Shown piece by piece: positions 3,973 through 58,318 of a stretch of 64,000 nt of DNA (positions are counted from its first letter, which is position 1; every line of letters begins with the position of its first letter). The translations under genes and the position numbers were made by a program. The notes below the pieces were generated by a model. The model made no database searches, had not been told where the DNA came from, and saw nothing but the letters and a program-made list of their open reading frames with translations. Origin of the DNA: a virus; the IMG/VR virus record IMGVR_UViG_3300047170_000049, positions 32,001 to 96,000 of that record. The stretch is one strand, 5' to 3'.

Positions 3973-4003
3973 ATTAAGATTTTAACCTAACTATGTGAAA
4001 TAA
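3973..4003 (-). promoter_or_regulatory. late promoter motif copy 1
   Basis: + strand ATTAAGATTT-TAACC-TAA-CTATG-TGAAAT; one of 12 intergenic copies upstream of structural genes. Confidence 0.7.
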
Positions 4004-4009
4004 CTGCTT

Positions 4010-4891
4010 TTATTCTGTCACTTCCACTGCTTGGATTCTTGCTTCAAAGTCTGCAGCACTTGGCCTATTGTGTATTACCCAAACCTGGACCACATCTTCT
4101 GGATTTAAACTCAAGCCACGGGTCGGTTCGTCCGATATGAATTCAGACACAGCATTGAAATCACCCCAATAGGTACGCTTTCTAGCTGAAACCACTGAGT
4201 TAATTTGAATATCGAAGGTAGCGACGTTTTCGCCGCTCATCTCTATTCTTTGCAAATAAGAATTTGTAACGGCCATTGGTACGGTATATGTAGCTACCAA
4301 TGTAGAGATGCCTGAAGGTACGGAGGTAATCTCATTAAACACTGACTTTATGACTTCAACGCCACCAGTGCCAGTTTGAGTAATAACGTTGATTGACCCA
4401 TCGGCATTGACTTTGACTTCATTACCCGACCCGTCACCTGAAGCAATTTTAACCACGTTAGGGAAAGATGATGTGAAGGCGACTGGAAGTGGGTTTGAGT
4501 TAGAATAGCCATTACCAAAGAAATCGACGTTGAATGTGCGAATGGCTACCGTAGGGTCGCGTTGATAGACGGCTTTGATGATTTCATCAGGTGGAGGGCC
4601 GCTAGGCTTGACTTGCATCGCAGCCGATAAGATGGCGTTATCACTGACTAAGTAGGCGCTAACATCAACGGGTGGGGCATTAATGCCTTTACCAATGGGG
4701 CCTACGACTAATTCTGTGGAGCTTAAAACGTATTTGACTTCGACTGAAAGGTTAGGTTGGGTGTTGGACGTAAGTAAGACTAGTGACTTATTGAAAAGAC
4801 CAGTAGTATCGGCTACTTCTATGATACCTTGTACTGTCCCGTTGGCAGTAAAAGGTTCTCTTACCGCTTCCCAGCTTTTCTCTAAAGCCAT
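4010..4891 (-). CDS. putative virion structural protein
   Basis: Beta-rich; downstream of late-promoter motif; C-terminal domain resembles that of 2621..3730 (TYTVP...LxR). Confidence 0.55.
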   Translation of the reverse strand: MALEKSWEAVREPFTANGTVQGIIEVADTTGLFNKSLVLLTSNTQPNLSVEVKYVLSSTELVVGPIGKGINAPPVDVSAYLVSDNAILSAAMQVKPSGPPPDEIIKAVYQRDPTVAIRTFNVDFFGNGYSNSNPLPVAFTSSFPNVVKIASGDGSGNEVKVNADGSINVITQTGTGGVEVIKSVFNEITSVPSGISTLVATYTVPMAVTNSYLQRIEMSGENVATFDIQINSVVSARKRTYWGDFNAVSEFISDEPTRGLSLNPEDVVQVWVIHNRPSAADFEARIQAVEVTE

Positions 4892-4942
4892 TTATTCACC
4901 ATGTCCCAAACACCACTACCCATGTAGAGGCTTACCTAATGT

Positions 4943-4973
4943 ATTAAGATTTTCGTCTAAGGACCTGATTTTA
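4943..4973 (-). promoter_or_regulatory. late promoter motif copy 2
   Basis: ATTAAGATTT-TCGTC-TAA-GGACC-TGATTT. Confidence 0.75.
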
Positions 4974-5035
4974 TTAAAGAATTAACTGTATTAGTTTTAT
5001 ATTTTTATTTTCCTATTTTCCTTAACATTGGTGAT

Positions 5036-5921: not shown

Positions 5922-6025
5922 ACATAGACGCGATAAGAAGATACGTCAAAGGCGAGTGCAAAATACACTGGCCAGTTTGTTTTTCTCTGCATTAGTTTTA
6001 GCCATTAGCTGTATGGGAGTGTGGA

Positions 6026-6373: not shown

Positions 6374-6381
6374 GATTTACT

Positions 6382-8025: not shown

Positions 8026-8087
8026 ATTCCAACCGTCCACTGCATTTTGTAATATACTTAATGTAATCAATAAAACAAGGAGTCAAA

Positions 8088-18910: not shown

Positions 18911-21709
18911 TTAAGCTGAAGCCGAGGTACTGATACCTTCGATTGTTAAATCAATTGGGATAAAGTAGATTGCGCCAGCTTCAATGAGGTCAATCTTAAC
19001 TGACATAACGCCAGCGTTGATTTGAACGTCGATGCTGTTGTATCCACCTGGTGCTTTAGCTGTAGCGACTGTGTACTTATTGTGTAAGAACTCAGCCATT
19101 TTAGCTTTACAGAATCCCACCGCAAGGGCTGCAGAAACATCGGCAACACTTTGACCGACGAACGCAGTCTTGAGACTTTGTGCGAGGCTAAGTGCCATAA
19201 TGTCACTAACATAAACAGCTTGTAGGCTGTTGTAGACGAAGTTTTTGTCCACACCGTATGTGGTTTGGTCTGAAGGGTACGCGAATCCACCGTTTGGTTG
19301 AGCTTGGATTGGTAACAACCCAGCTAACAGTGCATCTTCAACATCGGACACATCTCCATCATCGAAATCGTTAGCGGCTTGAATGACGCCAGAGATATTG
19401 ATTGATTTATTGAAGATAGCCTTGTAACCACCAGCGGCTTGCATACCTGCAGCAACTGCAGCACCCATCCAAGGTTGGAATTGAGTGGTGTTACCAGTTG
19501 ATTGCGATACGTTGAAAACGTCTTGGAAAGAACAAGTTACGCGGAAGCTTGCAAGGTTCTGAGCTTCTGCTTGAGCATTTGCGAACGTGTCGCGAATGGA
19601 GCAAAGTGCAGAACGATGTTTCTTAACTTTAGGAGTAGACATCGCGATAACGTGTGATTTCACTAAAGAGTTAACCGCTCTAACGGTGTAAGTTGAGCTT
19701 GGGTCAGTTAAACCTGAAGCAATGTCGAGGGTCGCATCTTGTGAAACAAGAGGAACTACGAAGTTACAGGTAACACCAGCAAGTGCGTCGATAGCGTTTG
19801 ACCAGTCAAGGCCAGTTGAACCACCCTTAGCTCCGTTAGCTAAGAAGGTAGCAGCTTGTGCGCTAGGAAGACCAGCTTTTGCGATTGCTCCGTAACCAGC
19901 TAATTGTGAACTAGCGAGACTTCTAGTACCTAAAGTTAGGTCATAAAGGTCAGACTTGATTTCACCAGGTTGGAAGCCTTCGTCACTAGCAATTCCGATG
20001 CTTTGAACTTGGTCGAGAACGCTGATTGGACGTTGACCTTGTAAAGATGAGAAGAGACTAGCTGAGTAACCAGTGTTTGAATTGATTAAGTTAACTAAGT
20101 CGTTAATGGTTGATAATTGACTTAAGTTAATGCTGAGGTTTGCACCTTGGCCACCAGTAACGGTAGTTGTGAAGATGTTTTGCCCAGAAACTTGATTGAT
20201 GCTTGCACTAGCAGTTGTACCGTTGTAACCTAAGCTAAATACGATATTTCCACCGACAGTGTAATTTTCTTGCTTGGTGCTTGACACGAGATTGATGGTC
20301 TTTTGGAGTTGAGCATCAGACTCAAGTAAAGTTCCTAAGAAAGAAGCGGCAGAGGTCGTACCTTGGTTAAGGAACATATTGCCAACGTTGGTAGCTCCAC
20401 CATTGTCATAAAGTTCCATGGTCTTTCCAGCACCCTTGATTTGTTGGTCAAGGTCTTGAACATCGCTAATAGCTGCGATTGGGGTAGAAGCTACTGAAAC
20501 TGGAGAACCGTTGCTCAAGCGAGACATCGTAATGAATGCGCTTGAAGAGTTATTAGCGGTAGAGGTAATTTGATACCAACCGATATTAGCATTACCAGCG
20601 CCTGCGAAAGCAGAACCTGAAGGAATGCTAACCCAGTCACCAACGCGAGGGCTTGAGGCCCATAATTGGCCTGCAGCTAATGTCATGGTGAGGTTAGAAC
20701 CAACTGCAACTGAAGTGATAGTTTGGCCAGTCAACCCAGTGAGGATTTGACGGTCAGTACCAGAAAGGTTATTGATTTGGAGGTAGCTCCAGTCAATAAG
20801 GTCATTACTAGGCGTACCAGTGATGGTAGCACTAGAAACCGCTACAGGGGCTCCTGCAGTAATCTTAGTTGCGCTTAATTGAGCTAATGAGGTTGTGTTT
20901 GAAATTGCAGTAACTACATACCAACCAACATTTGCATTTCCTGAGCCAGCTAATACTGAGCCAGAAGGGATTTGCATGGTATCGCCAACTTGAGGCGCTA
21001 CGCTGAATAAGGTAGGAGCGGTCAATGTTACGTTAACATTTTGACCTGAAACTGATAATGAAGCAACTTGCCCACCAGAACCTAGAGCAAGACGATTAGT
21101 TCCACCGACTGCATTAATGCCTGAAAGTGAAGTTAATGCACTTGCAAGGGCAGCGGGTGTTTCGTTAGCTGAAATGGCTAAGGTTTGTTTAGCTCCACCG
21201 TTAACTCGTGCGGCCAATGAAGCGCCAGAAGAGTTAGGGACATAGGAGAACTGTCCAGAAGTAGGAGCGGCTTCAAGGGTTGTGTCTTGAATTTGGAAAT
21301 AAATGAGGTTACCAGGTTGTCCAGCTAATTTAGCTACGAACATACCGTGGTTATCTTGGGTAGCCTTGGAAGCTCTAACACCTTCGTTAACTTTGACGAT
21401 AACGATGGATTGTGGAGCACCTTGGATTGCTTGGCTAGCTGAAGGCGTAACGGCAGCACGGAAAGCGTCAATTAAACGACCTGTTCCGTATTTAGCGACA
21501 AGTTTAGAAATATCACCAGGGCCGAAAACGTTATTAGCAAGTTTACCTTCTGAAGGGTCATCCCAGGCTGGACCTTGGTCTGCTTCACCAACTAGAGCAA
21601 CTACGCCCGTGGTAGCAATACCCGTGGGATTGCTAGCTACGTTAACAGTGACGGCAGAATCTGGTACGATTAACGTATATCCTGAAGGGTCTGTGTATGT
21701 GAAAGCCAT
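18911..21709 (-). CDS. contractile tail sheath protein with inserted domains
   Basis: N-terminal VALVGEADQGP, C-terminal DQTTY...IYFIPIDL sheath-like; 932 aa. Confidence 0.85.
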   Translation of the reverse strand: MAFTYTDPSGYTLIVPDSAVTVNVASNPTGIATTGVVALVGEADQGPAWDDPSEGKLANNVFGPGDISKLVAKYGTGRLIDAFRAAVTPSASQAIQGAPQSIVIVKVNEGVRASKATQDNHGMFVAKLAGQPGNLIYFQIQDTTLEAAPTSGQFSYVPNSSGASLAARVNGGAKQTLAISANETPAALASALTSLSGINAVGGTNRLALGSGGQVASLSVSGQNVNVTLTAPTLFSVAPQVGDTMQIPSGSVLAGSGNANVGWYVVTAISNTTSLAQLSATKITAGAPVAVSSATITGTPSNDLIDWSYLQINNLSGTDRQILTGLTGQTITSVAVGSNLTMTLAAGQLWASSPRVGDWVSIPSGSAFAGAGNANIGWYQITSTANNSSSAFITMSRLSNGSPVSVASTPIAAISDVQDLDQQIKGAGKTMELYDNGGATNVGNMFLNQGTTSAASFLGTLLESDAQLQKTINLVSSTKQENYTVGGNIVFSLGYNGTTASASINQVSGQNIFTTTVTGGQGANLSINLSQLSTINDLVNLINSNTGYSASLFSSLQGQRPISVLDQVQSIGIASDEGFQPGEIKSDLYDLTLGTRSLASSQLAGYGAIAKAGLPSAQAATFLANGAKGGSTGLDWSNAIDALAGVTCNFVVPLVSQDATLDIASGLTDPSSTYTVRAVNSLVKSHVIAMSTPKVKKHRSALCSIRDTFANAQAEAQNLASFRVTCSFQDVFNVSQSTGNTTQFQPWMGAAVAAGMQAAGGYKAIFNKSINISGVIQAANDFDDGDVSDVEDALLAGLLPIQAQPNGGFAYPSDQTTYGVDKNFVYNSLQAVYVSDIMALSLAQSLKTAFVGQSVADVSAALAVGFCKAKMAEFLHNKYTVATAKAPGGYNSIDVQINAGVMSVKIDLIEAGAIYFIPIDLTIEGISTSASA

Positions 21710-21744: not shown

Positions 21745-21775
21745 ATTAAGATTTGTAGTTAAACTGTTGAAATCA
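21745..21775 (-). promoter_or_regulatory. late promoter motif copy 3
   Basis: ATTAAGATTT-GTAGT-TAA-ACTGT-TGAAAT. Confidence 0.75.
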
Positions 21776-21782
21776 TTCAATT

Positions 21783-23609: not shown

Positions 23610-24071
23610 TTATTTTTTATCTTTCGCTTCAATGACAACTGGAGAATTAACAAATTCAGGTTGTGTGGTCGTTAATGGAGCATTTTGAATCATAGGTTGA
23701 TTACCAATCCTAGGAGCAATGTCTTTGGCTTCCGATTTGGGTAAATTGGGTTTCGCCATATTCTTAAGGTGATTTAACAAACCACGGTGAATACTTTTAG
23801 CTTTTGCAGCATGTCTCTCAGGGTCACTGACTCGACCGTAGCCGTGTGCAATAACACCTGGAACTTTTGCATCGGCTCTGCGAACTTCAATACCGACATC
23901 GCTTACGCCTGGAGTAACAGTCTTTTGATTCTCTAGGGCATCACGGCCTTCGCTATCAAATTGTTTAAATGCTCCGCGAATCATTCTCTTCTCGGAATCA
24001 CTTACGGTCTTTTTTAGCTCCGCTAGTTTCACTAGACGTTCCAGTATTGCTTTCATCATTAGACTTTCCAC
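23610..24071 (-). CDS. putative head protein with one MAKPNLPKSE module (probable start 24059)
   Basis: Same module as neighbouring gene. Confidence 0.65.
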   Translation of the reverse strand: MESLMMKAILERLVKLAELKKTVSDSEKRMIRGAFKQFDSEGRDALENQKTVTPGVSDVGIEVRRADAKVPGVIAHGYGRVSDPERHAAKAKSIHRGLLNHLKNMAKPNLPKSEAKDIAPRIGNQPMIQNAPLTTTQPEFVNSPVVIEAKDKK

Positions 24072-24556
24072 TGACCAGATTTAAAATGATGAACAATATC
24101 GGGAATAGCATCCTTCTCAGAAGAATGAGCATTTGGCGACCTACCAATGACTGAACCATCGGACGATTGAACGTGTTGAACGCTCCATGGATTTTTGGGT
24201 GCAGTCATATCAAATTCCATGCGATAATGATTTTTTCCACCAGGCTGGCCAATATTGTATCTCAATATGTGACCATGCTTTTCTGGTTTAGAAGTTAGCA
24301 TTTTTAAGCCCATAGGTTGTTGACCTGCCATTTGTGGTTTTGGGTCTACAACTGCGAAAGGCTTGGGTTGATTTGGAATAACTGGTGCAGCGGGGCCTTT
24401 GGGTTGTAACATTCCATGAGGCTGTTGAGTCCAGTGTTCGTCACCAACGGCTTTTTCCATTAGCTCACTATTCTTAAGCGTCAACTGAATAGCGGCTTTT
24501 AAGTCCTTCAATTCAGAGAGTTTTTTGATGTGTTCAGCTAATGCTTTCTTATCCAT
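24059..24556 (-). CDS. putative head/internal protein
   Basis: Helical leader ending LMEKA, then His-rich domain; directly after late promoter. Confidence 0.6.
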   Translation of the reverse strand: MDKKALAEHIKKLSELKDLKAAIQLTLKNSELMEKAVGDEHWTQQPHGMLQPKGPAAPVIPNQPKPFAVVDPKPQMAGQQPMGLKMLTSKPEKHGHILRYNIGQPGGKNHYRMEFDMTAPKNPWSVQHVQSSDGSVIGRSPNAHSSEKDAIPDIVHHFKSGQWKV

Positions 24557-24567
24557 ATCCAGTATTA

Positions 24568-24598
24568 ATTAAGATTTGTACCTAACATATTGATTTTA
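24568..24598 (-). promoter_or_regulatory. late promoter motif copy 4
   Basis: ATTAAGATTT-GTACC-TAA-CATAT-TGATTT. Confidence 0.75.
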
Positions 24599-25615
24599 TT
24601 CATCATCTACGGGGTCAATAGGGTCCAAGGACCCACGCCAGCCTTGCATGTCAACTTCAGGCAATAAAGACGCTGGTGATTGCATACCATCAATGGTGAT
24701 GGTAGGTGCAATTCCTTGAATGCCTTTATCCGTGGTATCAGGCCAAGACATGCCAACTCTGCCACGAAGAGTGATTTGGCGATGCCACAATACGTTAGGG
24801 TCCTCAGGGGCACTGCGAGTTAAGCCATCATATGCAATGGTTCCAACTTCAAACCCACGAGCTTCAAAAAGAGTTTGCTTGTATTTTAAAAGAATGAACA
24901 TGAGGATTTGGAATAAGTACATTGTGTCAACCGCATCTGTGGTATGAACACCTAGGGTGTAGTTATTCCAGAAGTACAGGAACTTGCGAGTTTGAATAAA
25001 ATTATTCGTATTAGGTCGAATGGTACAACCATTCAGATTGGGTACTTTCCCTTGGGGAATTGTGATAATTAAGTTTTCTTCATCGAGAACAGTTTCAATG
25101 ACGTAAGCCACATCATTTACTTCATCGTAAACGAATTGACCTTCAAAAACATTAGTCAAGTCAACGTCGGGGCCGAAAGTAACTTGTCCAGTTTGAGGTA
25201 TTACTGCTAGAGGGGTTACTGGGCCTAATATTTTTTGAGGTTGTTGGTATGAGCCTAAAAACTCTTCTGGGGTAACATTGCGGGTCTCAAAACCATCGCC
25301 TAGGCCAGCTTTAGCTTGGTCTTCACTACCACCGTTTAATTCAATGGTAATGCAAGGGAATTTCACATGGTCATCAACACGATGAGCCATTACCACGAAG
25401 ATTTCTTTCTTCATGAATGCTAGAAACTTTTGAACTTCAGCTTTACCGTAGGACTTGTCGGTGTAGGGGTCAGTTAAGATTTGATTAGCAATATCATATA
25501 TATAGTTGGGATTGGCACGAATATCTGACAAGGCTGTTTTGATAGCCGTGAACAAGATTAAATCGTCCTGGAAAATCCCAGGAGTAGATGTGGGGGGATT
25601 AGTAAAATCAACCAT
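24596..25615 (-). CDS. putative tail completion/terminator (neck) protein
   Basis: FPCITIEL motif, acidic, positioned near sheath. Confidence 0.55.
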   Translation of the reverse strand: MVDFTNPPTSTPGIFQDDLILFTAIKTALSDIRANPNYIYDIANQILTDPYTDKSYGKAEVQKFLAFMKKEIFVVMAHRVDDHVKFPCITIELNGGSEDQAKAGLGDGFETRNVTPEEFLGSYQQPQKILGPVTPLAVIPQTGQVTFGPDVDLTNVFEGQFVYDEVNDVAYVIETVLDEENLIITIPQGKVPNLNGCTIRPNTNNFIQTRKFLYFWNNYTLGVHTTDAVDTMYLFQILMFILLKYKQTLFEARGFEVGTIAYDGLTRSAPEDPNVLWHRQITLRGRVGMSWPDTTDKGIQGIAPTITIDGMQSPASLLPEVDMQGWRGSLDPIDPVDDE

Positions 25616-25623: not shown

Positions 25624-25654
25624 ATTAAGATTTTGGCCTAAGTTGCAGATATTG
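25624..25654 (-). promoter_or_regulatory. late promoter motif copy 5
   Basis: ATTAAGATTT-TGGCC-TAA-GTTGC-AGATAT. Confidence 0.7.
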
Positions 25655-26422
25655 TTAGGTTTTTGACTGCATCTCTTGGATGAAAGCAGACCATAGAGCG
25701 TCTATCTTTGCTTCAGCTTCTTTAAAGGCACCAAGTGGCTTAGTTCCAGGGTGCCACCATTTACCAGTACCTTTTTGTTTTTCTGAAACAACACGGAAGG
25801 TAAAGATGTCGCGCATGACTTTAGTCTTGCCGTTTTTCATCTGCACTTCGCGTTGATAGATATTGACGCCTGCTAAGAGTGGAATCTTAGAACGTATGGA
25901 GTTGGCGAATTCCATATCGACGGTGGCAGCGGCGACTTTGCCTAATTTAGGCTTTCCGTCATCATCGAGTATGGTTTTATTTAGCTTAAGTTTTTTAAGT
26001 TCACTCTTAACGTGTTCAGCTAATTGCATTTCAGCACGAGACATATCTTGTGGTCGTTTATTGTGCTTGAAAGGAATGATTGCGTACCGCTTACCGTCTT
26101 TACCCACTTTAGACTTAGGGCCGTGAGTTAAGGCTTCAATCATGTCATGGGCAGGTTGACCGTCTTCAATCCAGTTGGCTTCAGGTTGAAGATAAACAAC
26201 CCAAACGCTATCATTTTCGCTACTAATTTTTAGAGCGTCCATGTAAGTGCTTAAAGATGAATGCAATGTGTGGGTGGCCTTGTCAGTGATAAACGCATGG
26301 GTTTCTAAAGCAATGCGTTTCAAACCCATCTTTGATTGCTCAATAAGGGATTCGGACATATTGTCGATAGTCTTGCCTAGAGCTTCTAGCTCCGCTTCTA
26401 TGCTTAAATCTTTTTTTGCCAT
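25655..26422 (-). CDS. putative neck/tail-completion protein
   Basis: WIEDG, YAIIPFKH, TFRVVS...WWHPG motifs typical of myophage neck proteins. Confidence 0.6.
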   Translation of the reverse strand: MAKKDLSIEAELEALGKTIDNMSESLIEQSKMGLKRIALETHAFITDKATHTLHSSLSTYMDALKISSENDSVWVVYLQPEANWIEDGQPAHDMIEALTHGPKSKVGKDGKRYAIIPFKHNKRPQDMSRAEMQLAEHVKSELKKLKLNKTILDDDGKPKLGKVAAATVDMEFANSIRSKIPLLAGVNIYQREVQMKNGKTKVMRDIFTFRVVSEKQKGTGKWWHPGTKPLGAFKEAEAKIDALWSAFIQEMQSKT

Positions 26423-32803: not shown

Positions 32804-32834
32804 ATTAAGATTTTGGGTTAACCCTTTGATATTC
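32804..32834 (-). promoter_or_regulatory. late promoter motif copy 6
   Basis: ATTAAGATTT-TGGGT-TAA-CCCTT-TGATAT. Confidence 0.75.
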
Positions 32835-32862
32835 TTAGCTTTTTTATTTATTATTATTTGGC

Positions 32863-35487: not shown

Positions 35488-35518
35488 ATTAAGATTTTAG
35501 GTTAACCCTTTGATTTTA
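35488..35518 (-). promoter_or_regulatory. late promoter motif copy 7
   Basis: ATTAAGATTT-TAGGT-TAA-CCCTT-TGATTT. Confidence 0.75.
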
Positions 35519-37646
35519 TTGCATCTTTGACGGCTGGAATACCCCATACCCAAATAGAATTAATCAATGAATCAGGGTATTTAGACTGTTTTACCAATTC
35601 TTTGATTTCTTCTAGACGGTATAGTTCAGGGCTTGGGTCTAACTTATATTTAAACATAAGTTCTTTGATGAGGTTTGGGTCTAGACGTAGAATCCAGTCG
35701 CGAAGTTCTTCTGCGACCTTGGGATTTCTAATACGAGGTAGGCCCTGGAACTTAGTTTCATTATTAGAGTTTTGCTTAACGTCATTTTCTACGCGCAAGA
35801 TGTATGGGATGAAGATGTCCGTGTCTTTAGAAGGGTCGAAGGCAAGATTGGCAAAAGAAGACCCGTGGTCAATCATTTGCAAGCCCTTGCCGTTTGTCAT
35901 GACATTACCGCCATGAGAATCAGCTTCGCCTAGGATGTAGAACATGGTGGCTATTTTATGGACAACACCTTCACGGGTGAGTTCGCCAATGAGTGCCTTG
36001 AATTCATGTTCGTCATCTTTTTCAAGGTCTTGCGCTATCTTGTAATCGTCGGGTAGCATTTTGATTGCTACGGCATAGTGAGGCTTACCATCTTTTTGGA
36101 TTTCACCCATAACTGAATGTGGAATGTAATCAACCAAACCAAACACACTATGGGCTAGTTTATAGAAACAGGCTTCTTTAATGAATTGAGGGCCAGTATC
36201 TTTTAAAGACTTAACACCAGGCTTATTCTTAGGTTCGAGTTTTAAGAGCCATGAGTCTTTAGGTTCGTCGCCGACGATAAAGGAATCTGTGGTGAAATGG
36301 CCATAGTGACTTAGGTCATGAATCTTCTCGTCACGGATTAGCGAATTGATATTTTGTGTTGCTACTATGGAGTAATCATCTTGAGTCAGTGGCTTAAAGA
36401 ATTTAATGCCAGCAAACTTTTGTTCAATCTTTTCTAGAAGACCTTCTTCTTTAAGGAAGGAGTCCAGGCTCGAACCTAGATGTTTATTTTCGTTCTTTGT
36501 CATCTTAGGTTTAGCATCGGCAACTTCACCGTAATTATGTATGTTGCCTTTTGCATCACGTTGTGGTTTAGTCTGAAACTTCAGATTTTTAGAGTTGATA
36601 TTGAAACTTGCAGTGGGATGGCCAACAACAATTTCATTTTCATGCGAATGGGGATGTTCTTGGCCTTGGACGGTCATGTGATGACCAGAGTGAAGGACTT
36701 GTTTCAGTGGCACCCATTTGGACATTACCACCCCATGATTATCTGGTTGACCTTCAATATGCCCACGATTATATGCGAACCTCGCTGCCATTTCTGGGTC
36801 CGTTGTCCACGACGTTAAGTGTGCTGTGGGTAATTTTATTTTTTTATCGTCAACCTCGTTAGTTTCGGGGTTATGACCTACTGCATCTTTAATTGCTTTG
36901 CCATAATGCCCACCGACCCCACGATAAAGTTTGACATGAGGCTCACCATGAAAATAACGTTTAGGTGTGAATTTATCTTGCATTATTTCAGCTTGAACTT
37001 TTTTAGCGTACTCATCTAGGTGAGGAAGAACATCAGAGGCTTGCATGAATTTATTGGGGTACTCAAATTTAGTATTTTTTAAATGTTCTAAGGTTTCTTT
37101 GTCATGACCCATCAATCCATCAGGGTTGAGATAAGCTTCGTGACTATTGGCAGATTCGCCACGGTGGTCCGTTACCGTTTCAGGTTGACCCGTGAAATGA
37201 GACTTAATGGTCGCGAAATGACCAGGGCTAACCGCTCTTTCGTAGCTGGACCAAAAATTCCCAACCTTCTTCATGTTTGCCAAGGCTTCATCGGGCGCAA
37301 ATTTGGGATGGGTTTGTATTGCGTTGGTGACGTACTGGTCTTCACGACCTTCGTGACCCACACGCCTTAGTGTGGCAGCATCAGCATGCTTAGGGATGTG
37401 TCCAGCGTATTCAAATAGAAACGAATTGAGATTATCTTTTTGATTAGGACGAGTCTTAAGATGGTCTAGGACTTTGTGAACTGCAGCATTAGGCATACCT
37501 TCGCCGCCGTCATTGGGATTATTGGCCGAAGGAAGGCGCTGCCAAATGTCGTAGTTAGCTGGCACACGTTTAGCATGCTCAATGGCTTTATCCCAGTCAC
37601 CACGATGGATGGCTTCAAAAGTTGCTTTCTCATTTGAGTCAGACAT
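35502..37646 (-). CDS. multidomain protein: ADP-ribosyltransferase-like + HipA/PI3K-like kinase
   Basis: KLYRGV...TSWTTD...ENEIVV (R-S-E ART); LKLE...KEAC...DSHGGNVM...IDHGSSF (kinase). Confidence 0.75.
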   Translation of the reverse strand: MSDSNEKATFEAIHRGDWDKAIEHAKRVPANYDIWQRLPSANNPNDGGEGMPNAAVHKVLDHLKTRPNQKDNLNSFLFEYAGHIPKHADAATLRRVGHEGREDQYVTNAIQTHPKFAPDEALANMKKVGNFWSSYERAVSPGHFATIKSHFTGQPETVTDHRGESANSHEAYLNPDGLMGHDKETLEHLKNTKFEYPNKFMQASDVLPHLDEYAKKVQAEIMQDKFTPKRYFHGEPHVKLYRGVGGHYGKAIKDAVGHNPETNEVDDKKIKLPTAHLTSWTTDPEMAARFAYNRGHIEGQPDNHGVVMSKWVPLKQVLHSGHHMTVQGQEHPHSHENEIVVGHPTASFNINSKNLKFQTKPQRDAKGNIHNYGEVADAKPKMTKNENKHLGSSLDSFLKEEGLLEKIEQKFAGIKFFKPLTQDDYSIVATQNINSLIRDEKIHDLSHYGHFTTDSFIVGDEPKDSWLLKLEPKNKPGVKSLKDTGPQFIKEACFYKLAHSVFGLVDYIPHSVMGEIQKDGKPHYAVAIKMLPDDYKIAQDLEKDDEHEFKALIGELTREGVVHKIATMFYILGEADSHGGNVMTNGKGLQMIDHGSSFANLAFDPSKDTDIFIPYILRVENDVKQNSNNETKFQGLPRIRNPKVAEELRDWILRLDPNLIKELMFKYKLDPSPELYRLEEIKELVKQSKYPDSLINSIWVWGIPAVKDAIKSKG

Positions 37647-39759: not shown

Positions 39760-39790
39760 ATTAAGATTCTTATATAACCTATCGGAAGCA
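39760..39790 (-). promoter_or_regulatory. late promoter motif copy 8 (variant)
   Basis: ATTAAGATTC-TTATA-TAA-CCTAT-CGGAAG. Confidence 0.6.
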
Positions 39791-39827
39791 TTCAGGAATA
39801 CTTAAGGGATTTATTGTGATTATTTCC

Positions 39828-42162: not shown

Positions 42163-42474
42163 TTAAAGCTTGAAGACCATTTTAATTGCACCAGCAATAA
42201 TACCGCTGAGAATGGTCCATAGAATTTTGTTTTGTAGCTTTGTATCTTTTTGAAGGGCAGATAGTTGTTCTTTTTGGTGTTCTTGATTGTTTTCAAAGAG
42301 TATGACTTTTTCAGCCAACATCTTTTGGGTGCTAATGATTTGCTTTAACAGTTCGTCACGCTCTTCACCCGCTTGTTTGATGTAATCAAGCTCAGTGCGT
42401 AATTTAATTAAATCTGTGCGAACCGATATTTCTTTGTTCAAGTTAGACCTGCCGTTACTGGACATTCTTATCAA
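42163..42474 (-). CDS. coiled-coil protein with C-terminal TM (XhlA/holin-like)
   Basis: Coiled coil plus one terminal hydrophobic helix; after late promoter. Confidence 0.5.
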   Translation of the reverse strand: MIRMSSNGRSNLNKEISVRTDLIKLRTELDYIKQAGEERDELLKQIISTQKMLAEKVILFENNQEHQKEQLSALQKDTKLQNKILWTILSGIIAGAIKMVFKL

Positions 42475-42505: not shown

Positions 42506-42536
42506 ATTAAGATTTGGAGCTAAGATATTGGAATGA
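42506..42536 (-). promoter_or_regulatory. late promoter motif copy 9
   Basis: ATTAAGATTT-GGAGC-TAA-GATAT-TGGAAT. Confidence 0.7.
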
Positions 42537-42574
42537 TTGGGGTTTGGCGGGTCGAAACTAATACGGAGATTTTC

Positions 42575-49995: not shown

Positions 49996-51378
49996 TTAAC
50001 TGTTACGGAGGTTGTCGATAAGGATATTGAAGCGAGGAAGTTTAACAACTGTAGCGCAGAATCTAAAGCTAACTTTAGGAATGCTGAGGTCAGTCATAGC
50101 AAGTTGCATTGACTTGTAAGGGCTGAGTTCAGCAATTTCAAGACCGCGCATATCTAACATAAACCCAGTAACGAAACCAGGGGTTTTGTTATTGAGGTCG
50201 ATGAAAGCAGTGGTAGCTCCACCAGAGTTAACTACTCGACCAATCCAACGTAAGCTGCTTCCACCTGCATCTGAACGATACATATTGAAGTGCTTGGCGA
50301 AAACGCCTGAAGCTGGGGTGATGGTAGCAGTTACGCTATTGCCAGAAGCACCAATTGTGATGGGGCTAATAGCAGTTGCAGGGGATTCACCAATTTCGTT
50401 AACTGCAGTACAAAAGTATTGATAAACTTCGTTTGCGTTGAAAGAGGTTGTTCCTGCAGCTTGTGCAAGAGCGATGGTAGGGCTGTTAGGAGCACCGATA
50501 CGGGGACGGGCTACTGCAGTTTTACCAGAGAGGAAACGGCTTGATTCGATGCTAACAACTGAATCAGCTACTGCTTGCTCTTTCAAGCTTGCACCAGTTG
50601 ATTGTTGAGGGCTTCCTGCGAGAACGATACGTTCTTTGGGGAAAGCAATCTTGTTATAAGCGCCGTGTGTCAAGGGGTCAATGTACAATTTCTCAGGAGA
50701 ACCGTGGTTCATAGCAGCTTGTGCATATGAATCTTCGATGATTCCTTGAGAAAGGATACCGTTCTGGTTGAATACGATTGATTTGTTTGAACCGTACTCA
50801 TTGAACATTAAGTCTTGTGTTGAAGACAAATAATCTGATTGACGAATTTGGGGGTCAAGACCTTGCATTCCAGGGGTTGTTGACATTGCGAGGGGGTTAC
50901 CGTCGAAAACGCCAGCATTGCTGAAAGCTTCTTTACCACGGAATACTTCAAATTCGATGTCGCCAGCGATTTTCAATGCACTGTCTGCTTCAGCGCGGTC
51001 TTCGGATTTAACTCCGTCGAAAGCTTGAATCATTGTGGATTGAACAGTCACTCTACGAACTTCAGCGTAGTATGCCATGGGCACCACTGAACGAACATAG
51101 CTTGAGGTTTGTTCTTGTCCGACAGAGCCTTCAAGCACTGCAGAACCACCGAACACACCGTAATCAAGTTGACGGTTGAATTGTACTAAGGTCCCCTTAG
51201 CTGGGTTCACCTTAAGAAGCTTTTGCAACTTAATGTGTTTATCTTCGTAGGTAGCAACGTTCATTACAGGAGAAAGGTCTTCCATCTGTAATGCGCTACC
51301 TTGGTTTAGAGCACTGGGGGATACGTTATATCCACCTGCTTCTAAAGCTTTTTTAAGGGCTTCTAATTGTTCAATCAC
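49996..51378 (-). CDS. major capsid protein
   Basis: LKKA|LEAG...GSALQMEDL N-terminus and Ig-like insertion (YFCTAVNEIGES), as in SPO1/K-like MCPs; order portal-protease-scaffold-MCP. Confidence 0.9.
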   Translation of the reverse strand: MIEQLEALKKALEAGGYNVSPSALNQGSALQMEDLSPVMNVATYEDKHIKLQKLLKVNPAKGTLVQFNRQLDYGVFGGSAVLEGSVGQEQTSSYVRSVVPMAYYAEVRRVTVQSTMIQAFDGVKSEDRAEADSALKIAGDIEFEVFRGKEAFSNAGVFDGNPLAMSTTPGMQGLDPQIRQSDYLSSTQDLMFNEYGSNKSIVFNQNGILSQGIIEDSYAQAAMNHGSPEKLYIDPLTHGAYNKIAFPKERIVLAGSPQQSTGASLKEQAVADSVVSIESSRFLSGKTAVARPRIGAPNSPTIALAQAAGTTSFNANEVYQYFCTAVNEIGESPATAISPITIGASGNSVTATITPASGVFAKHFNMYRSDAGGSSLRWIGRVVNSGGATTAFIDLNNKTPGFVTGFMLDMRGLEIAELSPYKSMQLAMTDLSIPKVSFRFCATVVKLPRFNILIDNLRNS

Positions 51379-51380: not shown

Positions 51381-52226
51381 TTATGACTCCTTCTCAATAA
51401 GTTTTAAGATAGTTTCTTTACCCTTTTTATGAAGGTAAAAATCTACGATACTGTCTCGTTCGTTCTTAGTTAATGTGGGCTTACGGCTAATGGAAGTTAA
51501 CTTAGCGTGAATTTCCTTATCCGTTAGAGGCTTCTTGTCTTCAGATTTTTGAAGACTGCCTTCGCCTGGTTTAGCAACATGATTAATGTCAGTCACAGCT
51601 TTGCGAACTGGCTTGTTAATCATCTTCTCGAAAAGCTCTGTAACTTTTTCGAGACCAGCTTGAAGCTTCTTGGTTTCAGTCTCAGACTTAGCAAGCTTCT
51701 GTTCTAATTCTTCAACCTTAGCGTTATCCTTTTCAGACATTTGCAAAGGTGCAGATGCTGAGGGGGATGGTGCAGGGGCTGCAGGACTAGCTGAACCCAT
51801 ATCTGCAGGAGCGGCTTCTGGAGATGGAGATGAGCGTTTAGCCATTTCCATTTTGCATTTTTCCATAAGGTCCTGGAGTTTTTCGGGGTCAAGGTCAGCT
51901 AAGAGTTCTTCTAAGCTGCCAAAGTCTTGGTCTTGTTGACTGTCACTTGCTTCAGGTGAAGCAGGTGGAGTTGCGCTTGAATCAGAAGCTTCAGGAGAAG
52001 GTGCAGGGGCAGAAGCACTTGCATCGTCTTTCTTCATTGACTCTTCTTTTTCTTTTGAAGATTCTTCTTTGGATTTTTCTTTGGAAGATTCTTCTTTCTT
52101 AGCGAGTTCGGCAGCTTCAGCTTTTTTAAGCTCTTCTGCCTTATCCGTTTCTTTCTTGATTAACACGTCAAGTTCGCCAATGGCTTCCTTAACGAGTTTC
52201 TCAAGGTCAATTTTTGGTGTATCCAT
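51381..52226 (-). CDS. capsid scaffolding-like protein
   Basis: E/K/S-rich coiled coil with many LxK[S/A/K]E sites, upstream of MCP. Confidence 0.7.
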   Translation of the reverse strand: MDTPKIDLEKLVKEAIGELDVLIKKETDKAEELKKAEAAELAKKEESSKEKSKEESSKEKEESMKKDDASASAPAPSPEASDSSATPPASPEASDSQQDQDFGSLEELLADLDPEKLQDLMEKCKMEMAKRSSPSPEAAPADMGSASPAAPAPSPSASAPLQMSEKDNAKVEELEQKLAKSETETKKLQAGLEKVTELFEKMINKPVRKAVTDINHVAKPGEGSLQKSEDKKPLTDKEIHAKLTSISRKPTLTKNERDSIVDFYLHKKGKETILKLIEKES

Positions 52227-52271: not shown

Positions 52272-52727
52272 TTATTGACCAGAACCTGGCCATTTGTAGT
52301 CGCCGACTTTGGCAACAAGGTTAGCGGGGAGGATTTCAGCGGTTGATGGAACTGAACCATTCGCGCCGAGATAACGTTCTTGATACACGCCTAATTGAGC
52401 AAGGTCCCAGTCGATTAAAGATTTAACTGAGCTAGCAACAATGGAATGTCCAGAGTCAGTGTCAGATTCTTCAACGATTTGGAGTTTGCTTGGGCTGTAG
52501 ACTTGTTGAGGGCTGCCGATACTGTCCAAAAATGGAGTGTCGAAAGGAACAATGCGAATTAGCATGTTGTTCTGACCTGCAGTAGGGGTGGCACTTTGTG
52601 ACACAGACAAGATAGCACCAGAAGCATCAGTCGATTGACTGAATGTATAGCTGGGAAGACGTAATGAAAGTCTTTCTTGGAGGTCACGAGCGAGGGCTTG
52701 TTGTTTTGCAATTTGTAAAAGGGACAT
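52272..52727 (-). CDS. putative head structural protein
   Basis: First gene after late promoter in capsid operon; RBS AGGAG. Confidence 0.6.
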   Translation of the reverse strand: MSLLQIAKQQALARDLQERLSLRLPSYTFSQSTDASGAILSVSQSATPTAGQNNMLIRIVPFDTPFLDSIGSPQQVYSPSKLQIVEESDTDSGHSIVASSVKSLIDWDLAQLGVYQERYLGANGSVPSTAEILPANLVAKVGDYKWPGSGQ

Positions 52728-52777: not shown

Positions 52778-52808
52778 ATTAAGATATTTCCCTAAGTTCT
52801 TAAAATGA
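52778..52808 (-). promoter_or_regulatory. late promoter motif copy 10 (variant)
   Basis: ATTAAGATAT-TTCCC-TAA-GTTCT-TAAAAT. Confidence 0.6.
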
Positions 52809-53768
52809 TTAATGTTTTTTAGAATTATTCAATTTCGCGTAAATTTCCATAGCTTCTGCCTCGTTAGCGGCATAGAGCTTGTTGGCTAGCACAGCTTCCA
52901 CTTTTTCTAAGTTCTCCTCAGATAGGGTAGGAAGATGTTTTCGCATTTCAGTACGGGTTAGCTTCTTTTTCTTGAAAATTTTCACTAACTTAGCTAACTC
53001 AGTATCGAGTCCTTCCTTTTGCAAGGCAGGCCCACTTGAGAGGGCTGAGGGAGTGGCACCCATTCCACCAGCGGAGATTGCCTTTTTAAGTCCGCTGAGG
53101 GCATTGGATAGCTGTGCATATTGGTCAGGTCGTACTGAGTCCTGAATTATATACACTTCATTGTAAGCCGATTTGTGCAAGGATTCGTGGCCACCATTGG
53201 CAGTCGAGTAATCCATAGACTTGCGGACTCCTTGGTGGGATTCCTGCACAAATTCAACTTTGGCGGCTCTATTACAAGGCTTGTGCGTTAGCGCAAGTCT
53301 ACGAATAGCCGTTTCTTTTAAAAGATTTCCTTCACGTTTAACTGTAGAACCTTCAACGCTAAAGCCAAGTTGTTGTTCAACCCCAGCCGATTCAAAGTTG
53401 CGTATAATAGATGCGGCAGCTTTGGCGTTTGGATGATTCTCGTCATCAAAGATTTCTACTTGGCCCCAAATGAGTGGGACCTTGAGTTTCTTAAATGCTT
53501 GTAATTCTTGCTTATTTGAGCAATCTTTTTCGCTAAAGATTTTCTTAGCGTTCATGACCCTACCGACGATAGACTGAAAGCCTTCAAAGCCTTTGTTTTT
53601 CTCATCTTTTAGGTCTTCTGGGTTGATATGCTCCGTATTAACTAGAGCCTTTCCTGAACGTAGCTCTTCTATGTCAGCACCCTTAACATCTAGGACTTCG
53701 CCTGAAGTATCGGGGGTTTGCGCTGAAAAGACACCAGCCAGTATTAGATTTTTCTTAAGGTCACTCAT
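52809..53768 (-). CDS. prohead maturation protease
   Basis: DTSGE, NTEH, GFSVEG, ALTHKPCN motifs of HK97/U35-like proteases. Confidence 0.85.
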   Translation of the reverse strand: MSDLKKNLILAGVFSAQTPDTSGEVLDVKGADIEELRSGKALVNTEHINPEDLKDEKNKGFEGFQSIVGRVMNAKKIFSEKDCSNKQELQAFKKLKVPLIWGQVEIFDDENHPNAKAAASIIRNFESAGVEQQLGFSVEGSTVKREGNLLKETAIRRLALTHKPCNRAAKVEFVQESHQGVRKSMDYSTANGGHESLHKSAYNEVYIIQDSVRPDQYAQLSNALSGLKKAISAGGMGATPSALSSGPALQKEGLDTELAKLVKIFKKKKLTRTEMRKHLPTLSEENLEKVEAVLANKLYAANEAEAMEIYAKLNNSKKH

Positions 53769-53777: not shown

Positions 53778-53808
53778 ATTAAGATTTTAAGCTAAATACT
53801 TGATTTAA
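53778..53808 (-). promoter_or_regulatory. late promoter motif copy 11
   Basis: ATTAAGATTT-TAAGC-TAA-ATACT-TGATTT. Confidence 0.75.
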
Positions 53809-53834
53809 TTAAAGTTAAATGCCTTAAATTCTTA

Positions 53835-53862: not shown

Positions 53863-53895
53863 TAATGAATAGCGACTTAAACAAAGGGGATTAAA

Positions 53896-55253: not shown

Positions 55254-57274
55254 TATTCGTGCCCATGACCGTCATCTTTGTCACCTAGGGCGTTCATAAT
55301 TTGGTTGAGCATGTCTTGTGACTGAGCCTGCCAACTTTCAGTAACCTTGTCTTTGATTTGCTTATGCAATTTGAGTAACTCTCTACGATTTTTGGGTAAG
55401 CTCTTTTCAGCTTTGGTTAAGCCTTCAGACTTATTCAAAAGTTCTTGGAGTTGAGCCACTACGGAGTCAAGGTCTTGAGGTTGTTGTGGAGCGCCGCCAC
55501 CTGGTTGTCCTGGTTGACCAGGTTGGGGTGGAGGGTTAAGCATTTGCTTAACTTCTAAGTACATCTCGTCGCCAAGGTAGTAGTCGAATTCAGGATGTTG
55601 GGTCTTGTCGCCATAACCTTTATATTGCTCACCGCCAAAGGATTCGAGGATTTGTCCCTTCGTGTAGTATTTTTCAAGGATTGCAAGCCATGCAGCGTTC
55701 ATTGGGAATTCGCCTGCAAGTGGGACCTTCTGTTTTTCTACGCGGTCCATGATGTCGTTCATGTTCATGTAGATTGCAGAGTCTTGCTCTAAGCGGGTAG
55801 CTTCTTTTTCTGGTGTATCTGCATCAAGACCTTCGAGGTCGATGTAGAAAAGTTTAGCCCATTCAGGATTAATCTTGGGTAAAAGTCTTTCGTTAATGAA
55901 ATCTTCTACGCTAAGTAGTAATGGACGAAGACCAATGTCACGAGCGGCGATTAACTTCCATTCGTTATTAGCTTCTGCCATTGACTGAGAGTTCGTACCG
56001 CGTGATAGGTATGATAGAGCGGCTACTTCATCAGGTGACATTTGGAAAGCGGCGAAAATCATACGTTTAGTCAAGTCTGATAAGTATTGGAATTCCATGT
56101 CGCGGCCAGCGGCATCTAATGCAACGGTATCAACTTCGTCTTTAGTACCGATACCAAATACTGGCATACGCCAAGCAGCATTAGAAGAGTTGATATGCGC
56201 GTTCATCTGAGCACGAATCATTTCAACGTCTTCTTTGTCCAAGTTCTCAGATTTGAAAACCAGGATGTTACGAGATGCGCGACCGTTAATGAAGTACATC
56301 TTGTTATGAGTTGTAATATTGATGTGGGTTGTGATAGCATTAATAATACGGTCAAAGATGGTTACAGGATAACCTGAACGTAGAATGTCAGTTGAAGGGC
56401 TAAGGGTCCAGACTAGTAGTTCATCATCTGTAAAGAACTGTCTTGGACGTTCTTGGATAACTTGTACCCATGTGTAATCATCTTCAATGAAGCGTTCTGG
56501 GTCAACTTCGATTTTACCTTGTCCGTCAATACCATCGCGAATGCGTTGAAGTTCTACGATAGCTTGTTCACGGATAGATTGAGCGGCATCAGCTTTAGGT
56601 GCTGCGAAGTAAATAGTACCAGCATCGACGGCGCGAAAGTATTGAAACTCTTCTGAGCTTTCAGTCTTAATGATTTCAGTTGCGAACCACCCGAACGTCA
56701 AAGCATCTTCTATGATTTCTGAGAAGTATTGGGATAGGGTACGTTTTTCTTTATCTTTAAGCCCTTCGTTAGAACCACAATTGAGCATAAGTTCTTTAAT
56801 CTTAGGGACTTCTGTCTCTTTAAGCTCTTTGATTTTTTCATCACTCAAACCTTCTAAAATTTGAGGCTTGATGTTAACGGTAAAACCAACATCGAAACGG
56901 TTAGCACGAGGTCTAGCGAATGATGCAATTTGACGAGCACGAACGGGTAGGATGACGCCGCCGATAAGTTCTTCTGTATCGCGGATGCGCTTGAGCATGA
57001 TGTTTGGAATGAGCGAAGTTTTTTGTTTATAGAGACCTTCGTAATTGGAATAACCAAGCTGAGGGTCTACGTCATAAGATAGGCGAAGACTCTTCTTGAT
57101 TTTCTCATCAGAGCTTTTCTTAAGTTCGCTAAGGATTTGTGCAATTGGGTCAGCCGAATTGGTATTAGGGTCAACTTCAATTGTGGTAAATCGCTTATCG
57201 CTAGTAGGAAGCTGCTCTGCGTTTCTAGGTAACTCAGCGCCGCCTACTAATCTTTGTGTTTTATCATCGCTCAT
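55253..57274 (-). CDS. portal protein
   Basis: FRAVDAGTIY, GYP, NAAWRMPV, RDMEFQ, AAFQMSPDEV, GLRPLL. Confidence 0.9.
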   Translation of the reverse strand: MSDDKTQRLVGGAELPRNAEQLPTSDKRFTTIEVDPNTNSADPIAQILSELKKSSDEKIKKSLRLSYDVDPQLGYSNYEGLYKQKTSLIPNIMLKRIRDTEELIGGVILPVRARQIASFARPRANRFDVGFTVNIKPQILEGLSDEKIKELKETEVPKIKELMLNCGSNEGLKDKEKRTLSQYFSEIIEDALTFGWFATEIIKTESSEEFQYFRAVDAGTIYFAAPKADAAQSIREQAIVELQRIRDGIDGQGKIEVDPERFIEDDYTWVQVIQERPRQFFTDDELLVWTLSPSTDILRSGYPVTIFDRIINAITTHINITTHNKMYFINGRASRNILVFKSENLDKEDVEMIRAQMNAHINSSNAAWRMPVFGIGTKDEVDTVALDAAGRDMEFQYLSDLTKRMIFAAFQMSPDEVAALSYLSRGTNSQSMAEANNEWKLIAARDIGLRPLLLSVEDFINERLLPKINPEWAKLFYIDLEGLDADTPEKEATRLEQDSAIYMNMNDIMDRVEKQKVPLAGEFPMNAAWLAILEKYYTKGQILESFGGEQYKGYGDKTQHPEFDYYLGDEMYLEVKQMLNPPPQPGQPGQPGGGAPQQPQDLDSVVAQLQELLNKSEGLTKAEKSLPKNRRELLKLHKQIKDKVTESWQAQSQDMLNQIMNALGDKDDGHGHE

Positions 57275-57277
57275 AAA

Positions 57278-58252
57278 TTACTCTGCCGTCGCAATCGTTA
57301 CAACCAAAGTCTCAAGACTGAGGTTAGTTACACTTAAAGCGTAGGTCGTTCCATTCTTAAGATAGAGTCCTGGGGTTTCAGGACTATCGACTGTTGTGGG
57401 CTCAACTAACGTGTTATTTGAAACATCAGCATTAGCTTGAACACTGCAACGTTGTTGTGCAGCAATCATGACCCACTTTTTAGCGTTTGAATAAATTACG
57501 AATCCAGCGGCTCCAGGCATGATGCCTGATTCAATTGGAAGTCCATTTGGATTAGCTGCCGTGATTTCAATGTAATTAGGCGTTACGTTTGTAAGAACGT
57601 AGGTGCCTTGGGTGTATTGACTAAATCCAGCGGAGATTAGAAGCTTATCGCCAATTTGTGCTTGATTATTTGAAGCACCATTACTGAAGAGTAATAACAG
57701 TGTAGGGTCTAGAACCACTACAGTTTCTGCCACTGCATCAAGATTTTGAATAGAAAATGATGTTGCGTTCTTACCAATAACAGTGAACACACCTTGGTTA
57801 ACTGGGTTAAAGCCAGAACCTGCACTAATGCTAACTTGGTCACCAATTTGAAGTGTGCTGAAGTCAGGCGCTGTACCCGTTCCAGTATATGTGTAAAGGG
57901 CAATGCCACCATTTACCGTAACGGCGAATTGGGTGGTATTATCAATGCCTGTCACGCGGCTAGTTCTAAAAGCTGGGGCTGTTCCACCAGTCCAAGTAAA
58001 TCTAAAGGTGTTAAGAGCAATAGAAGGTTGGCTTACGGTAAATGCCGTAGTGCTATCAATCGCGGTATTTCTCGTACCGTTGAAGATTGATTGGGTAAAC
58101 CCTGGAGCAATTGCAAACTCTTCCGACTTAGGTCTGGTTACCGTCATGCCTAGCAAATTGTAAGAAAGGTCAGCATTTCGGATACTTGGGTTGTTATTTT
58201 GTAGCATGTCAGAGAAAGCTAAAAAGCCTAATCGTAAATTTAAAGTGCTCAA
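57278..58252 (-). CDS. putative structural protein
   Basis: T/G-rich, two IGD-x-V/L-x-I-S-AG repeats; TTG start with RBS AGGAG. Confidence 0.6.
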   Translation of the reverse strand: MSTLNLRLGFLAFSDMLQNNNPSIRNADLSYNLLGMTVTRPKSEEFAIAPGFTQSIFNGTRNTAIDSTTAFTVSQPSIALNTFRFTWTGGTAPAFRTSRVTGIDNTTQFAVTVNGGIALYTYTGTGTAPDFSTLQIGDQVSISAGSGFNPVNQGVFTVIGKNATSFSIQNLDAVAETVVVLDPTLLLLFSNGASNNQAQIGDKLLISAGFSQYTQGTYVLTNVTPNYIEITAANPNGLPIESGIMPGAAGFVIYSNAKKWVMIAAQQRCSVQANADVSNNTLVEPTTVDSPETPGLYLKNGTTYALSVTNLSLETLVVTIATAE

Positions 58253-58287
58253 GAAAGTGCTCCTTGGATAATACCGTTTTTTAATAC

Positions 58288-58318
58288 ATTAAGATTTTCA
58301 TATAACTCATTGATTTTA
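58288..58318 (-). promoter_or_regulatory. late promoter motif copy 12
   Basis: ATTAAGATTT-TCATA-TAA-CTCAT-TGATTT. Confidence 0.75.

Follow-up and report, generated by a model that had tools for sequence, protein, structure and literature searches.

The locus and its source

The window analysed here is a 64,000-nucleotide stretch of viral DNA comprising bases 32001-96000 of the 159,288-bp IMG/VR record IMGVR_UViG_3300047170_000049, which CheckV rates as complete. The source is an uncultured 159-kb myovirus with a guanine plus cytosine (GC) content of ~42%, and it is related to Myxococcus phage Mx1 (OR576727.2), the only phage record in which tblastn detected a homologue of its sigma factor. 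Matches to PHROGs identify the tail sheath, portal, large terminase, major head protein, prohead protease and thymidylate synthase, and ribonucleotide reductase was identified by both Pfam and PHROGs. Two features of this genome are considered together below: a motif repeated upstream of the late genes, and a gene encoding a sigma-70-family factor that lacks region 4.2, the helix-turn-helix (HTH) that reads the -35 element.

A strand-specific motif upstream of late genes

The motif was originally described in the first-pass annotation of the window as 12 intergenic copies of WATCA-N5-TTA-N5-AAATCTTAAT, in all of which TTA and its spacing were invariant. All 12 copies are indeed present. Allowing up to two mismatches, the pattern was matched ten times on the minus strand of the window, where 0.04 matches would be expected, while the remaining two copies, at 39760 (GAATCTTAAT) and 52778 (ATATCTTAAT), each contain one mismatch in the 10-mer core and retain a correctly spaced TTA. 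Searching the whole genome raised the total to 17, of which three precede the window and two lie beyond it; every copy is on the minus strand (17/17, with none on the plus strand), and TTA and its spacing are invariant throughout (17/17). The description of the copies as intergenic applies to most of them, the exception being the copy at 35488, whose upstream box lies inside the end of the preceding open reading frame (ORF). The copies in the window are listed below, with protein lengths in amino acids (aa) and distances in nucleotides (nt).

58288..58320, minus strand: candidate promoter copy with box AATAAAATCAA, TTA and AAATCTTAAT, just past the terminase stop codon and before a 324-aa gene (57278-58252); exact match to the consensus of the DNA-bending protein IHF, considered below
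53778..53810, minus strand: candidate promoter copy before a prohead-protease-like gene (52809-53768); ATG 9 nt after TAAT, no Shine-Dalgarno sequence
52778..52810, minus strand: weaker candidate copy (ATATCTTAAT, poor box) before the operon 52272-52727 / 51381-52226 / major head gene 49996-51378
42506..42538, minus strand: candidate promoter copy before a 103-aa gene (42163-42474)
39760..39792, minus strand: weaker candidate copy (GAATCTTAAT; box with three mismatches to the IHF consensus) before a 692-aa gene (37646-39724)
35488..35520, minus strand: candidate promoter copy before a 214-aa gene (34822-35466); box overlaps the end of ORF 35502-37646
32804..32836, minus strand: candidate promoter copy before a 128-aa gene (32373-32759)
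25624..25656, minus strand: candidate promoter copy before a 339-aa gene (24596-25615); ATG 8 nt after TAAT, no Shine-Dalgarno sequence
24568..24600, minus strand: candidate promoter copy before a 165-aa gene (24059-24556); ATG 11 nt after TAAT
21745..21777, minus strand: candidate promoter copy before the tail sheath gene (18911-21709)
4943..4975, minus strand: candidate promoter copy before a 293-aa gene (4010-4891)
3973..4005, minus strand: candidate promoter copy before a 69-aa ORF and then gene 2621-3730

Among the genes downstream of the copies are the tail sheath gene, the prohead protease gene, the operon of the major head protein, the gene that follows the terminase, and genes for a virion protein and a tail fibre; 'late', in the sense of virion genes, is a fair label for them. 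The strand-specific signal before late genes reported initially is therefore confirmed across the genome.

The conserved sequence proved to be longer than first described. The elements named originally all stand, and the conserved block extends further upstream, the full motif reading AATnAWWTCAa-N4-TTAg-N4-aAAATCTTAAT. In a logo of the 17 sites, numbered from the last T of TAAT (= 0), the upstream block contains A-32 and R-31 (17/17 each), T-30 (15/17) and A-28 (16/17), followed by T-25, C-24 and A-23 (14-15/17 each), while the 'A' of WATCA is kept in just 10/17 sites. TTA occupies -17 to -15 in 17/17 sites and is followed by G-14 in 10/17, and positions A-10 to T0 are nearly invariant. The upstream box carries ~12 bits at positions that were not used for picking the sites. 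It could be argued that this conservation is a by-product of the stop codons of the upstream genes; the stop offsets, however, are many and different, which rules this out. Bases vary freely in the 4-nt gap between TCAa and TTA and also between TTAg and the A run, and since these spacers differ between copies while the blocks stay, the copies are not simple duplicates.

Two further core-like sequences lie inside genes of the window. An isolated AAATCTTAAT at 2148-2157 (minus strand, inside ORF 300-2609), which has neither TTA nor box, is probably not a site, and a one-mismatch core copy, TTAGAGCAAAAGCTTAAT, occurs at 31892-31909 (minus strand, inside ORF 31337-32365); both could be chance matches or weak internal promoters. 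It was also observed that the starts at window positions 24556, 25615 and 53768, and at genome position 28642, lie 8-11 nt after TAAT and lack a Shine-Dalgarno sequence, in contrast to the clear GGAG-type sites of the other late genes. The transcripts of these four genes would have leaders of only a few nucleotides.

A sigma factor family that ends after region 4.1

62783..63772, minus strand: sigma-70-family factor of 329 aa, with regions 1.2-like, 2, 3 and 4.1 and no region 4.2 HTH (Pfam, PHROG, profile and Foldseek)

The assignment of this protein to the sigma-70 family rests on matches to Pfam Sigma70_r3 (27.2 bits, over the cut-off) and to PHROG 351 (E=2e-15), and on a profile of 17 sigma homologues that aligns to residues 371-566/570 of Escherichia coli sigma70 and also to the SigA proteins of Thermus and Bacillus (E ~1e-10 for SigA). 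The family profile stops at the equivalent of the region 4.1 sequence AKVLRMRFGI and contains no counterpart of the region 4.2 HTH (~residues 572-599 of sigma70). In the AlphaFold model of the phage protein (pLDDT 72.8), whose top Foldseek matches are the primary sigma factors SigA/RpoD, two C-terminal helices follow the region 3.2 linker, and the chain ends '...LDKLNVIEQKVLKLKGVKTCF'. Six-frame searches of the whole phage genome gave no match to Sigma70_r4 (PF04545) and just one chance match to PF08281 (r4_2), with E=0.09, within a 1309-aa ORF. The earlier statement that the phage sigma ends after region 4.1, and so has no -35-reading HTH, is thus borne out by both the profile alignment and the six-frame search.

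The same end point is seen across the family. All 17 aligned homologues (24-80% identity) end within ~10 residues of KVLKLKGV. A pattern search recovered 63 related viral and bacterial-bin loci with a sigma frame, and 50/63 of these frames end 3-20 residues past a KvLrLKG-type motif; the other 13 did not fit the pattern, although their printed ends also come soon after the motif, barring two frames cut by contig ends. An exhaustive profile search (E<=1e-30) found at least 341 sigma clusters at 50% identity, and in nearly all of the 150 clusters listed the profile match stops only a few residues short of the protein's C-terminal end, if at all. Because homologues, related loci and profile-search clusters all end at the equivalent place, the truncation is not an assembly error. 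Searched by megablast, the phage collection gave no match to the sigma region, nor did a single-sequence pattern search for the sigma in IMG/VR, while the alignment-based search did recover relatives there. A literature search for the Mx1 sigma, or for phage sigmas without region 4, including the promoters of this sigma family, found no paper in the literature covered.

It is possible to envisage that region 4.2 is supplied by a second reading frame. A frameshift, or the overlapping next ORF at 62511-62792, was ruled out as its source, as no r4 signal occurs in any frame and the homologues end alike. A stand-alone region 4.2 gene at genome positions 110539-110820 (plus strand) was likewise rejected: the frame has no ATG, GTG or TTG start, gave no sigma r4 Pfam match at E<=10, and contains the promoter-like GCCGATAA. 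This 93-codon frame (L120:2039-2320), which lies outside the window, follows in frame the TGA stop of a 138-aa coiled-coil ORF, contains CCGATAA and ends in the pattern IA..L.IS...V....VEKLRK. A separate observation concerns P0040, P0041 and ~20 other sigma homologues of 570-820 aa, in which a ~250-450-aa insertion after profile position ~210-225 divides the profile match into two stretches. Sub-threshold Pfam matches to Intein_splicing and Hint suggest that these insertions are probably inteins in a conserved sigma segment.

An AATCTT core accompanies the sigma family

Four IMG/VR relatives whose sigma factors are 38-47% identical to that of the studied phage carry the same tripartite motif before late genes, including the junction after the terminase, which thus bears a copy in relatives too. 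The box and TTA were seen solely in this subclade (sigma >=38% identical). To look beyond it, 7-mer enrichment was determined, without use of the motif, in the gaps before late-strand genes of four distant relatives (sigma 25-31% identical) and Mx1; 9-mer counting over whole loci had been too noisy. CAATCTT was the top 7-mer in three genomes and CCTAATCTT in a fourth, so that one or the other led in 4/5 genomes, Mx1 among them, and in Mx1 itself CAATCT(T/A) lies ahead of nine annotated late genes. The AATCTT core accompanies the sigma family in genomes of 31-69% GC, and this co-occurrence backs the pairing of the late motif with the truncated sigma that had been suggested from the window alone.

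AATCTT also shows a preferred distance to gene starts. Using the first start codons of ORFs in 75 distant loci pooled with five longer stretches, ORF starts were found to peak 6 and 7 nt after AATCTT (9 and 7 cases, compared with 0-2 at neighbouring distances). The 5-9 nt bin accounts for 2.9% of AATCTT occurrences, whereas 59 permutations of the hexamer gave 0.57% on average and 1.4% at most, and 17/19 of the starts in this bin are ATG. Such a peak would be expected of a -10 hexamer ending at -7 if transcription began on the A of the start codon, giving leaderless mRNAs. On this comparative evidence AATCTT is most likely the -10 element of the truncated-sigma family, and many late mRNAs in the relatives would be leaderless. 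In known holoenzymes sigma region 2 flips out the A at -11 and the T at -7, and AATCTT as the -10 element places an A at -11 and a T at -7.

In this promoter numbering, a logo of 85 non-redundant sites from the distant relatives contains information just at A-18, R-17, C-13, AATCTT, T-6 and A+1. Throughout the stretch -57 to -19 of these sites the information stays at <=0.11 bit per position, with no conserved -35 element, and per-genome alignments of G005, G006, G009 and Mx1 revealed no box by eye. The lack of a conserved -35 in the distant relatives suggests that the sigma family as a whole relies on promoters without a -35 element, in line with the absence of region 4.2. A -10 element alone is therefore what the distant relatives display; the subclade, in contrast, has a conserved box at the -35 position. 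The relatives that occur in bacterial genome bins belong to mixed phyla, including Patescibacteria, Flavobacteriaceae, Saprospiraceae, Deltaproteobacteria and Elusimicrobia, and are thus uninformative for identifying the host.

A proposed model for late transcription

We propose that host RNA polymerase (RNAP), when carrying the phage's own sigma, uses the 17 copies as late promoters, a reading to which we assign a probability of about 0.75. This sigma keeps regions 2, 3 and 4.1 and has lost the -35-reading region 4.2. By analogy with sigma70, its region 4.1 may still anchor it on the beta flap. The element common to the family would be AATCTT as the -10 hexamer, which in most relatives would act alone, accompanied upstream by C-13 and by a weak preference for A/purine at -18/-17. 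In the subclade the promoter appears to have grown into a ~36-bp tripartite signal consisting of AATnAWWTCA at ~-36 to -27, TTA(G) at -21 to -18 and AAAATCTTAAT at -15 to -4. Beyond the core, the subclade has AAA and AAT flanking the hexamer on its upstream and downstream sides, respectively, TTA(G), and AATnAWWTCA exactly where a -35 element would be. These added upstream elements may give the holoenzyme an upstream hold in place of the lost -35 contact, raising strength and specificity.

Several points weigh against this proposal. Promoter function and the choice of the -10 bases are deduced from position and comparison, and the start site and every protein-DNA contact are likewise inferred. 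One distant genome, G008 (L117-L119; 35% GC, sigma 27% identical), has CATGTTAT and TACTAGCA in place of AATCTT as the words enriched ahead of its late-strand genes; its promoter specificity may have shifted. The pooled logo may hide genome-specific -35 boxes, as the four genomes aligned individually were checked just by eye. In the studied phage itself no gene starts 6-7 nt past AATCTT, the shortest gaps being the 11-14 nt of the four genes without a Shine-Dalgarno sequence; its start site is thus uncertain, and the true -10 element could be TAATNN. Finally, AATCTT might be read by a host sigma. This last explanation, together with the idea that the motif is something other than a promoter (a site of RNA processing, a signal for recombination or packaging, or a mobile repeat), is in keeping with the close likeness of the copies, as in mobile promoter cassettes, but is very improbable, given that the core follows the phage sigma family across very different GC contents and presumably different hosts, that the blocks stay constant among copies whose spacer bases differ, and that the strict orientation to gene starts and the 6-7 nt ATG spacing in relatives fit a -10 element.

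What reads the upstream box

If the copies are promoters, the question becomes what recognizes the box. Tentatively, we place first the holoenzyme itself, through the alpha C-terminal domains, the beta-prime zipper or sigma region 3. Relatives without the box show a weak A/purine signal at -18/-17, in a similar place to TTA(G). This counterpart, and the observation that TTA is never TTG in the 17 copies and is often followed by G, suggest that TTA may belong to the part of the promoter that is read by sigma.

Ranked second, and possible though not favoured, is a subclade-specific activator or co-sigma encoded by the phage, which would bind AATnAWWTCA and contact RNAP in the manner of T4 MotA at -30 or of a class II activator. 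Such a protein would account for the base-specific conservation of the box, including its C, at a fixed distance from the -10 element, and for the confinement of the box to the subclade; phages with minimal sigmas do add co-activators, such as T4 gp33 and gp45 (PMC7892883). Weighing on the other side, the box has no clear dyad symmetry by eye, and no candidate gene is at hand: the sole HTH protein examined in the sigma operon (196 aa) is small-terminase-like, and no search for DNA-binding domains was made elsewhere in the genome. Taken without the proviso that the copies are promoters, the activator is an unlikely explanation.

In third place, and again unlikely, comes host IHF or another DNA bender. 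The first-pass annotation had put this protein at the centre of its proposal, with an IHF/HU-type protein replacing sigma region 4 in late transcription. According to this explanation, host IHF or an HU/IHF-type protein binds WATCAR-N4-TTA at ~-31 to -19 and bends the DNA, serving as an architectural stand-in for region 4.2. The resemblance to the IHF consensus (WATCARNNNNTTR / WATCAANNNNTTR) is real: compared with WATCARNNNNTTR, the WWTCAa-N4-TTA segment is an exact match in 7/17 sites, has one mismatch in 5/17 and two to three in 5/17, so that 12/17 sites are within one mismatch. The six exact matches reported for the window were recovered, and the seventh lies outside it. In the genome as a whole, exact matches to WATCAANNNNTTR number 26, with 21.7+-4.3 expected. 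Furthermore, the 4-bp gap within the consensus is unconserved, and WATCA is preceded, at a distance of 10-13 bp, by an A/T-rich patch of the kind found at many E. coli IHF sites, such as the lambda H' site. Subclade relatives retain the box; IHF, as a ubiquitous host protein, would require no new phage gene, and the sigma has no region 4.2 to compete for the DNA of the box.

Against this stand several observations. Memorable consensus sequences are many, and agreement with one of them is not a very improbable event. The strongest positions of the box (AAT.A; A-32, T-30 and A-28 of the logo) fall outside the consensus, such that conservation reaches bases that IHF does not specify, and the 'A' of WATCA is the poorly kept base noted above. 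TTA is always A at its third position and is then followed by G in over half of the sites, with the weak counterpart at -18/-17 in box-less relatives. By analogy with the H' site, IHF would cover ~-49 to -15 and so abut the extended -10 region; to our knowledge, activating IHF sites lie further upstream, and a placement at -49 to -15 is not known for activation. Most of the family, with the same truncated sigma, does without any box. As distant members with this sigma conserve nothing from -57 to -19, truncation alone does not demand an IHF box.

The phage genome, in which the first-pass annotation had suggested looking for an HU/IHF gene, contains none: the best match to PF00216 reached 15 bits, below the cut-off of 22.4, and lies in the 196-aa protein encoded at 60598-61188. 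This sole weak match is spurious, as the model of the protein is all-helical and has no HU-like fold match, and a phage HU/IHF was therefore rejected. A role for host IHF would in addition presuppose a host that possesses it, and the relatives in bacterial bins point to no single phylum. The replacement of region 4 by an IHF/HU-type protein is thus not supported as stated, in view of truncated-sigma relatives without the box, the restriction of the box to one subclade and the lack of a phage HU/IHF gene. We regard any involvement of IHF at these late promoters as doubtful, and more doubtful still the specific idea that an IHF-type host bender is a built-in part of the promoter, sitting in the -35/spacer region in place of the region 4.2 contact that the sigma family gave up.

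Relation to known systems and significance

Phage sigma factors are a classic device for the timing of late genes, although the textbook cases, T4 and SPO1, are few. Late transcription of T4 depends on gp55 together with the co-activator gp33 and the sliding clamp gp45, and uses the promoter TATAAATA (PMC7892883). Similar to the proposal made here, a phage sigma-family protein without a -35-reading domain guides host RNAP to the late genes by way of nothing more than a -10-type element. In contrast with gp55, which is minimal and region-2-like, the factor studied here keeps regions 1.2-like, 2, 3 and 4.1; its putative promoter word is AATCTT rather than TATAAATA, and two fixed upstream elements are added to it. 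The T4 combination of a minimal gp55-like sigma with a TATAAATA promoter is therefore not what this phage has; counterparts of gp33 or gp45 were not searched for.

The same end result, -35-independence, is reached by another route in Thermus phage P23-45, where gp39 is associated with -35-independent transcription of middle and late phage genes from -10-type promoters (PMC3950348). The two phages differ in that P23-45 disables region 4 of the host sigma, whereas the studied phage would supply a sigma that has no region 4.2. Mechanistically, gp39 acts by binding RNAP. Other phage sigma-70-family factors, gp28 and gp34 of SPO1 and gp36 of phiEco32, switch RNAP to middle or late promoters; the phiEco32 promoters have been described with a single -10-like element, while those of SPO1 gp28/gp34 have -35 elements. 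These factors share with the present one that they are encoded by the phage and belong to the sigma-70 family, but they are not detectably of the same family, tblastn having matched Mx1 alone among phage records. IHF-assisted phage promoters are known from lambda pL and Mu Pe, with the consensus WATCAANNNNTTR and activating sites well upstream of -35. The phage context and the consensus match in 7-12/17 copies are comparable; here, however, the match spans ~-31 to -19, inside the putative promoter.

The remaining comparison is with Mx1. Its sigma homologue (WNM70309, 'putative RNA polymerase sigma factor') is 31% identical, has the same length and ends at the same C-terminal point, and it lies within the same gene order of helicase, sigma, hypothetical gene, SbcD-like phosphoesterase, two further genes and terminase. 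Mx1 likewise has CAATCTT before late genes. It differs in lacking both the AATnAWWTCA box and the invariant TTA, and in its GC content (55% versus 42%).

The study brings to light a large and previously uncharacterized sigma family of Mx1-like myoviruses (the 341 or more clusters above), in which most of a primary-type sigma is kept and the -35 reader is cleanly gone. The family may be viewed as a natural experiment on the need for sigma region 4.2, and the extra 20-bp upstream signal of the subclade may illustrate one way for a system without a -35 element to recover a grip on upstream DNA. AATCTT could provide a simple annotation rule for late promoters in these genomes and, paired with its sigma, a compact orthogonal sigma/promoter pair for synthetic biology.

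Genes around the sigma gene

58323..60161, minus strand: large terminase, last gene of the sigma operon (PHROG)
60598..61188, minus strand: 196-aa protein of the sigma-terminase operon, two genes upstream of the large terminase (all-helical model)

Within the window, no copy of the late motif was found upstream of the sigma-terminase operon. The model of the 196-aa protein comprises an N-terminal four-helix HTH domain and a helix of ~50 residues, with no beta-ribbon arms. Its best fold matches, which are non-significant, are the small terminases of Sf6 and G20c, and the model suggests that this currently unannotated protein is probably a small terminase. The sigma stop codon is overlapped by 10 nt by a 93-aa ORF (62511-62792, minus strand) that resembles a GroES/gp31-type co-chaperonin by eye, a likeness without Pfam or PHROG support. 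In two relatives the large gap upstream of the helicase-sigma operon contains tandem arrays of 4-5 direct repeats (L013:7516-7620, TGTCCATACC; L022:5267-5440, GTCCGCTTTTGAGGACATAAT), which could be iterons or operator arrays.

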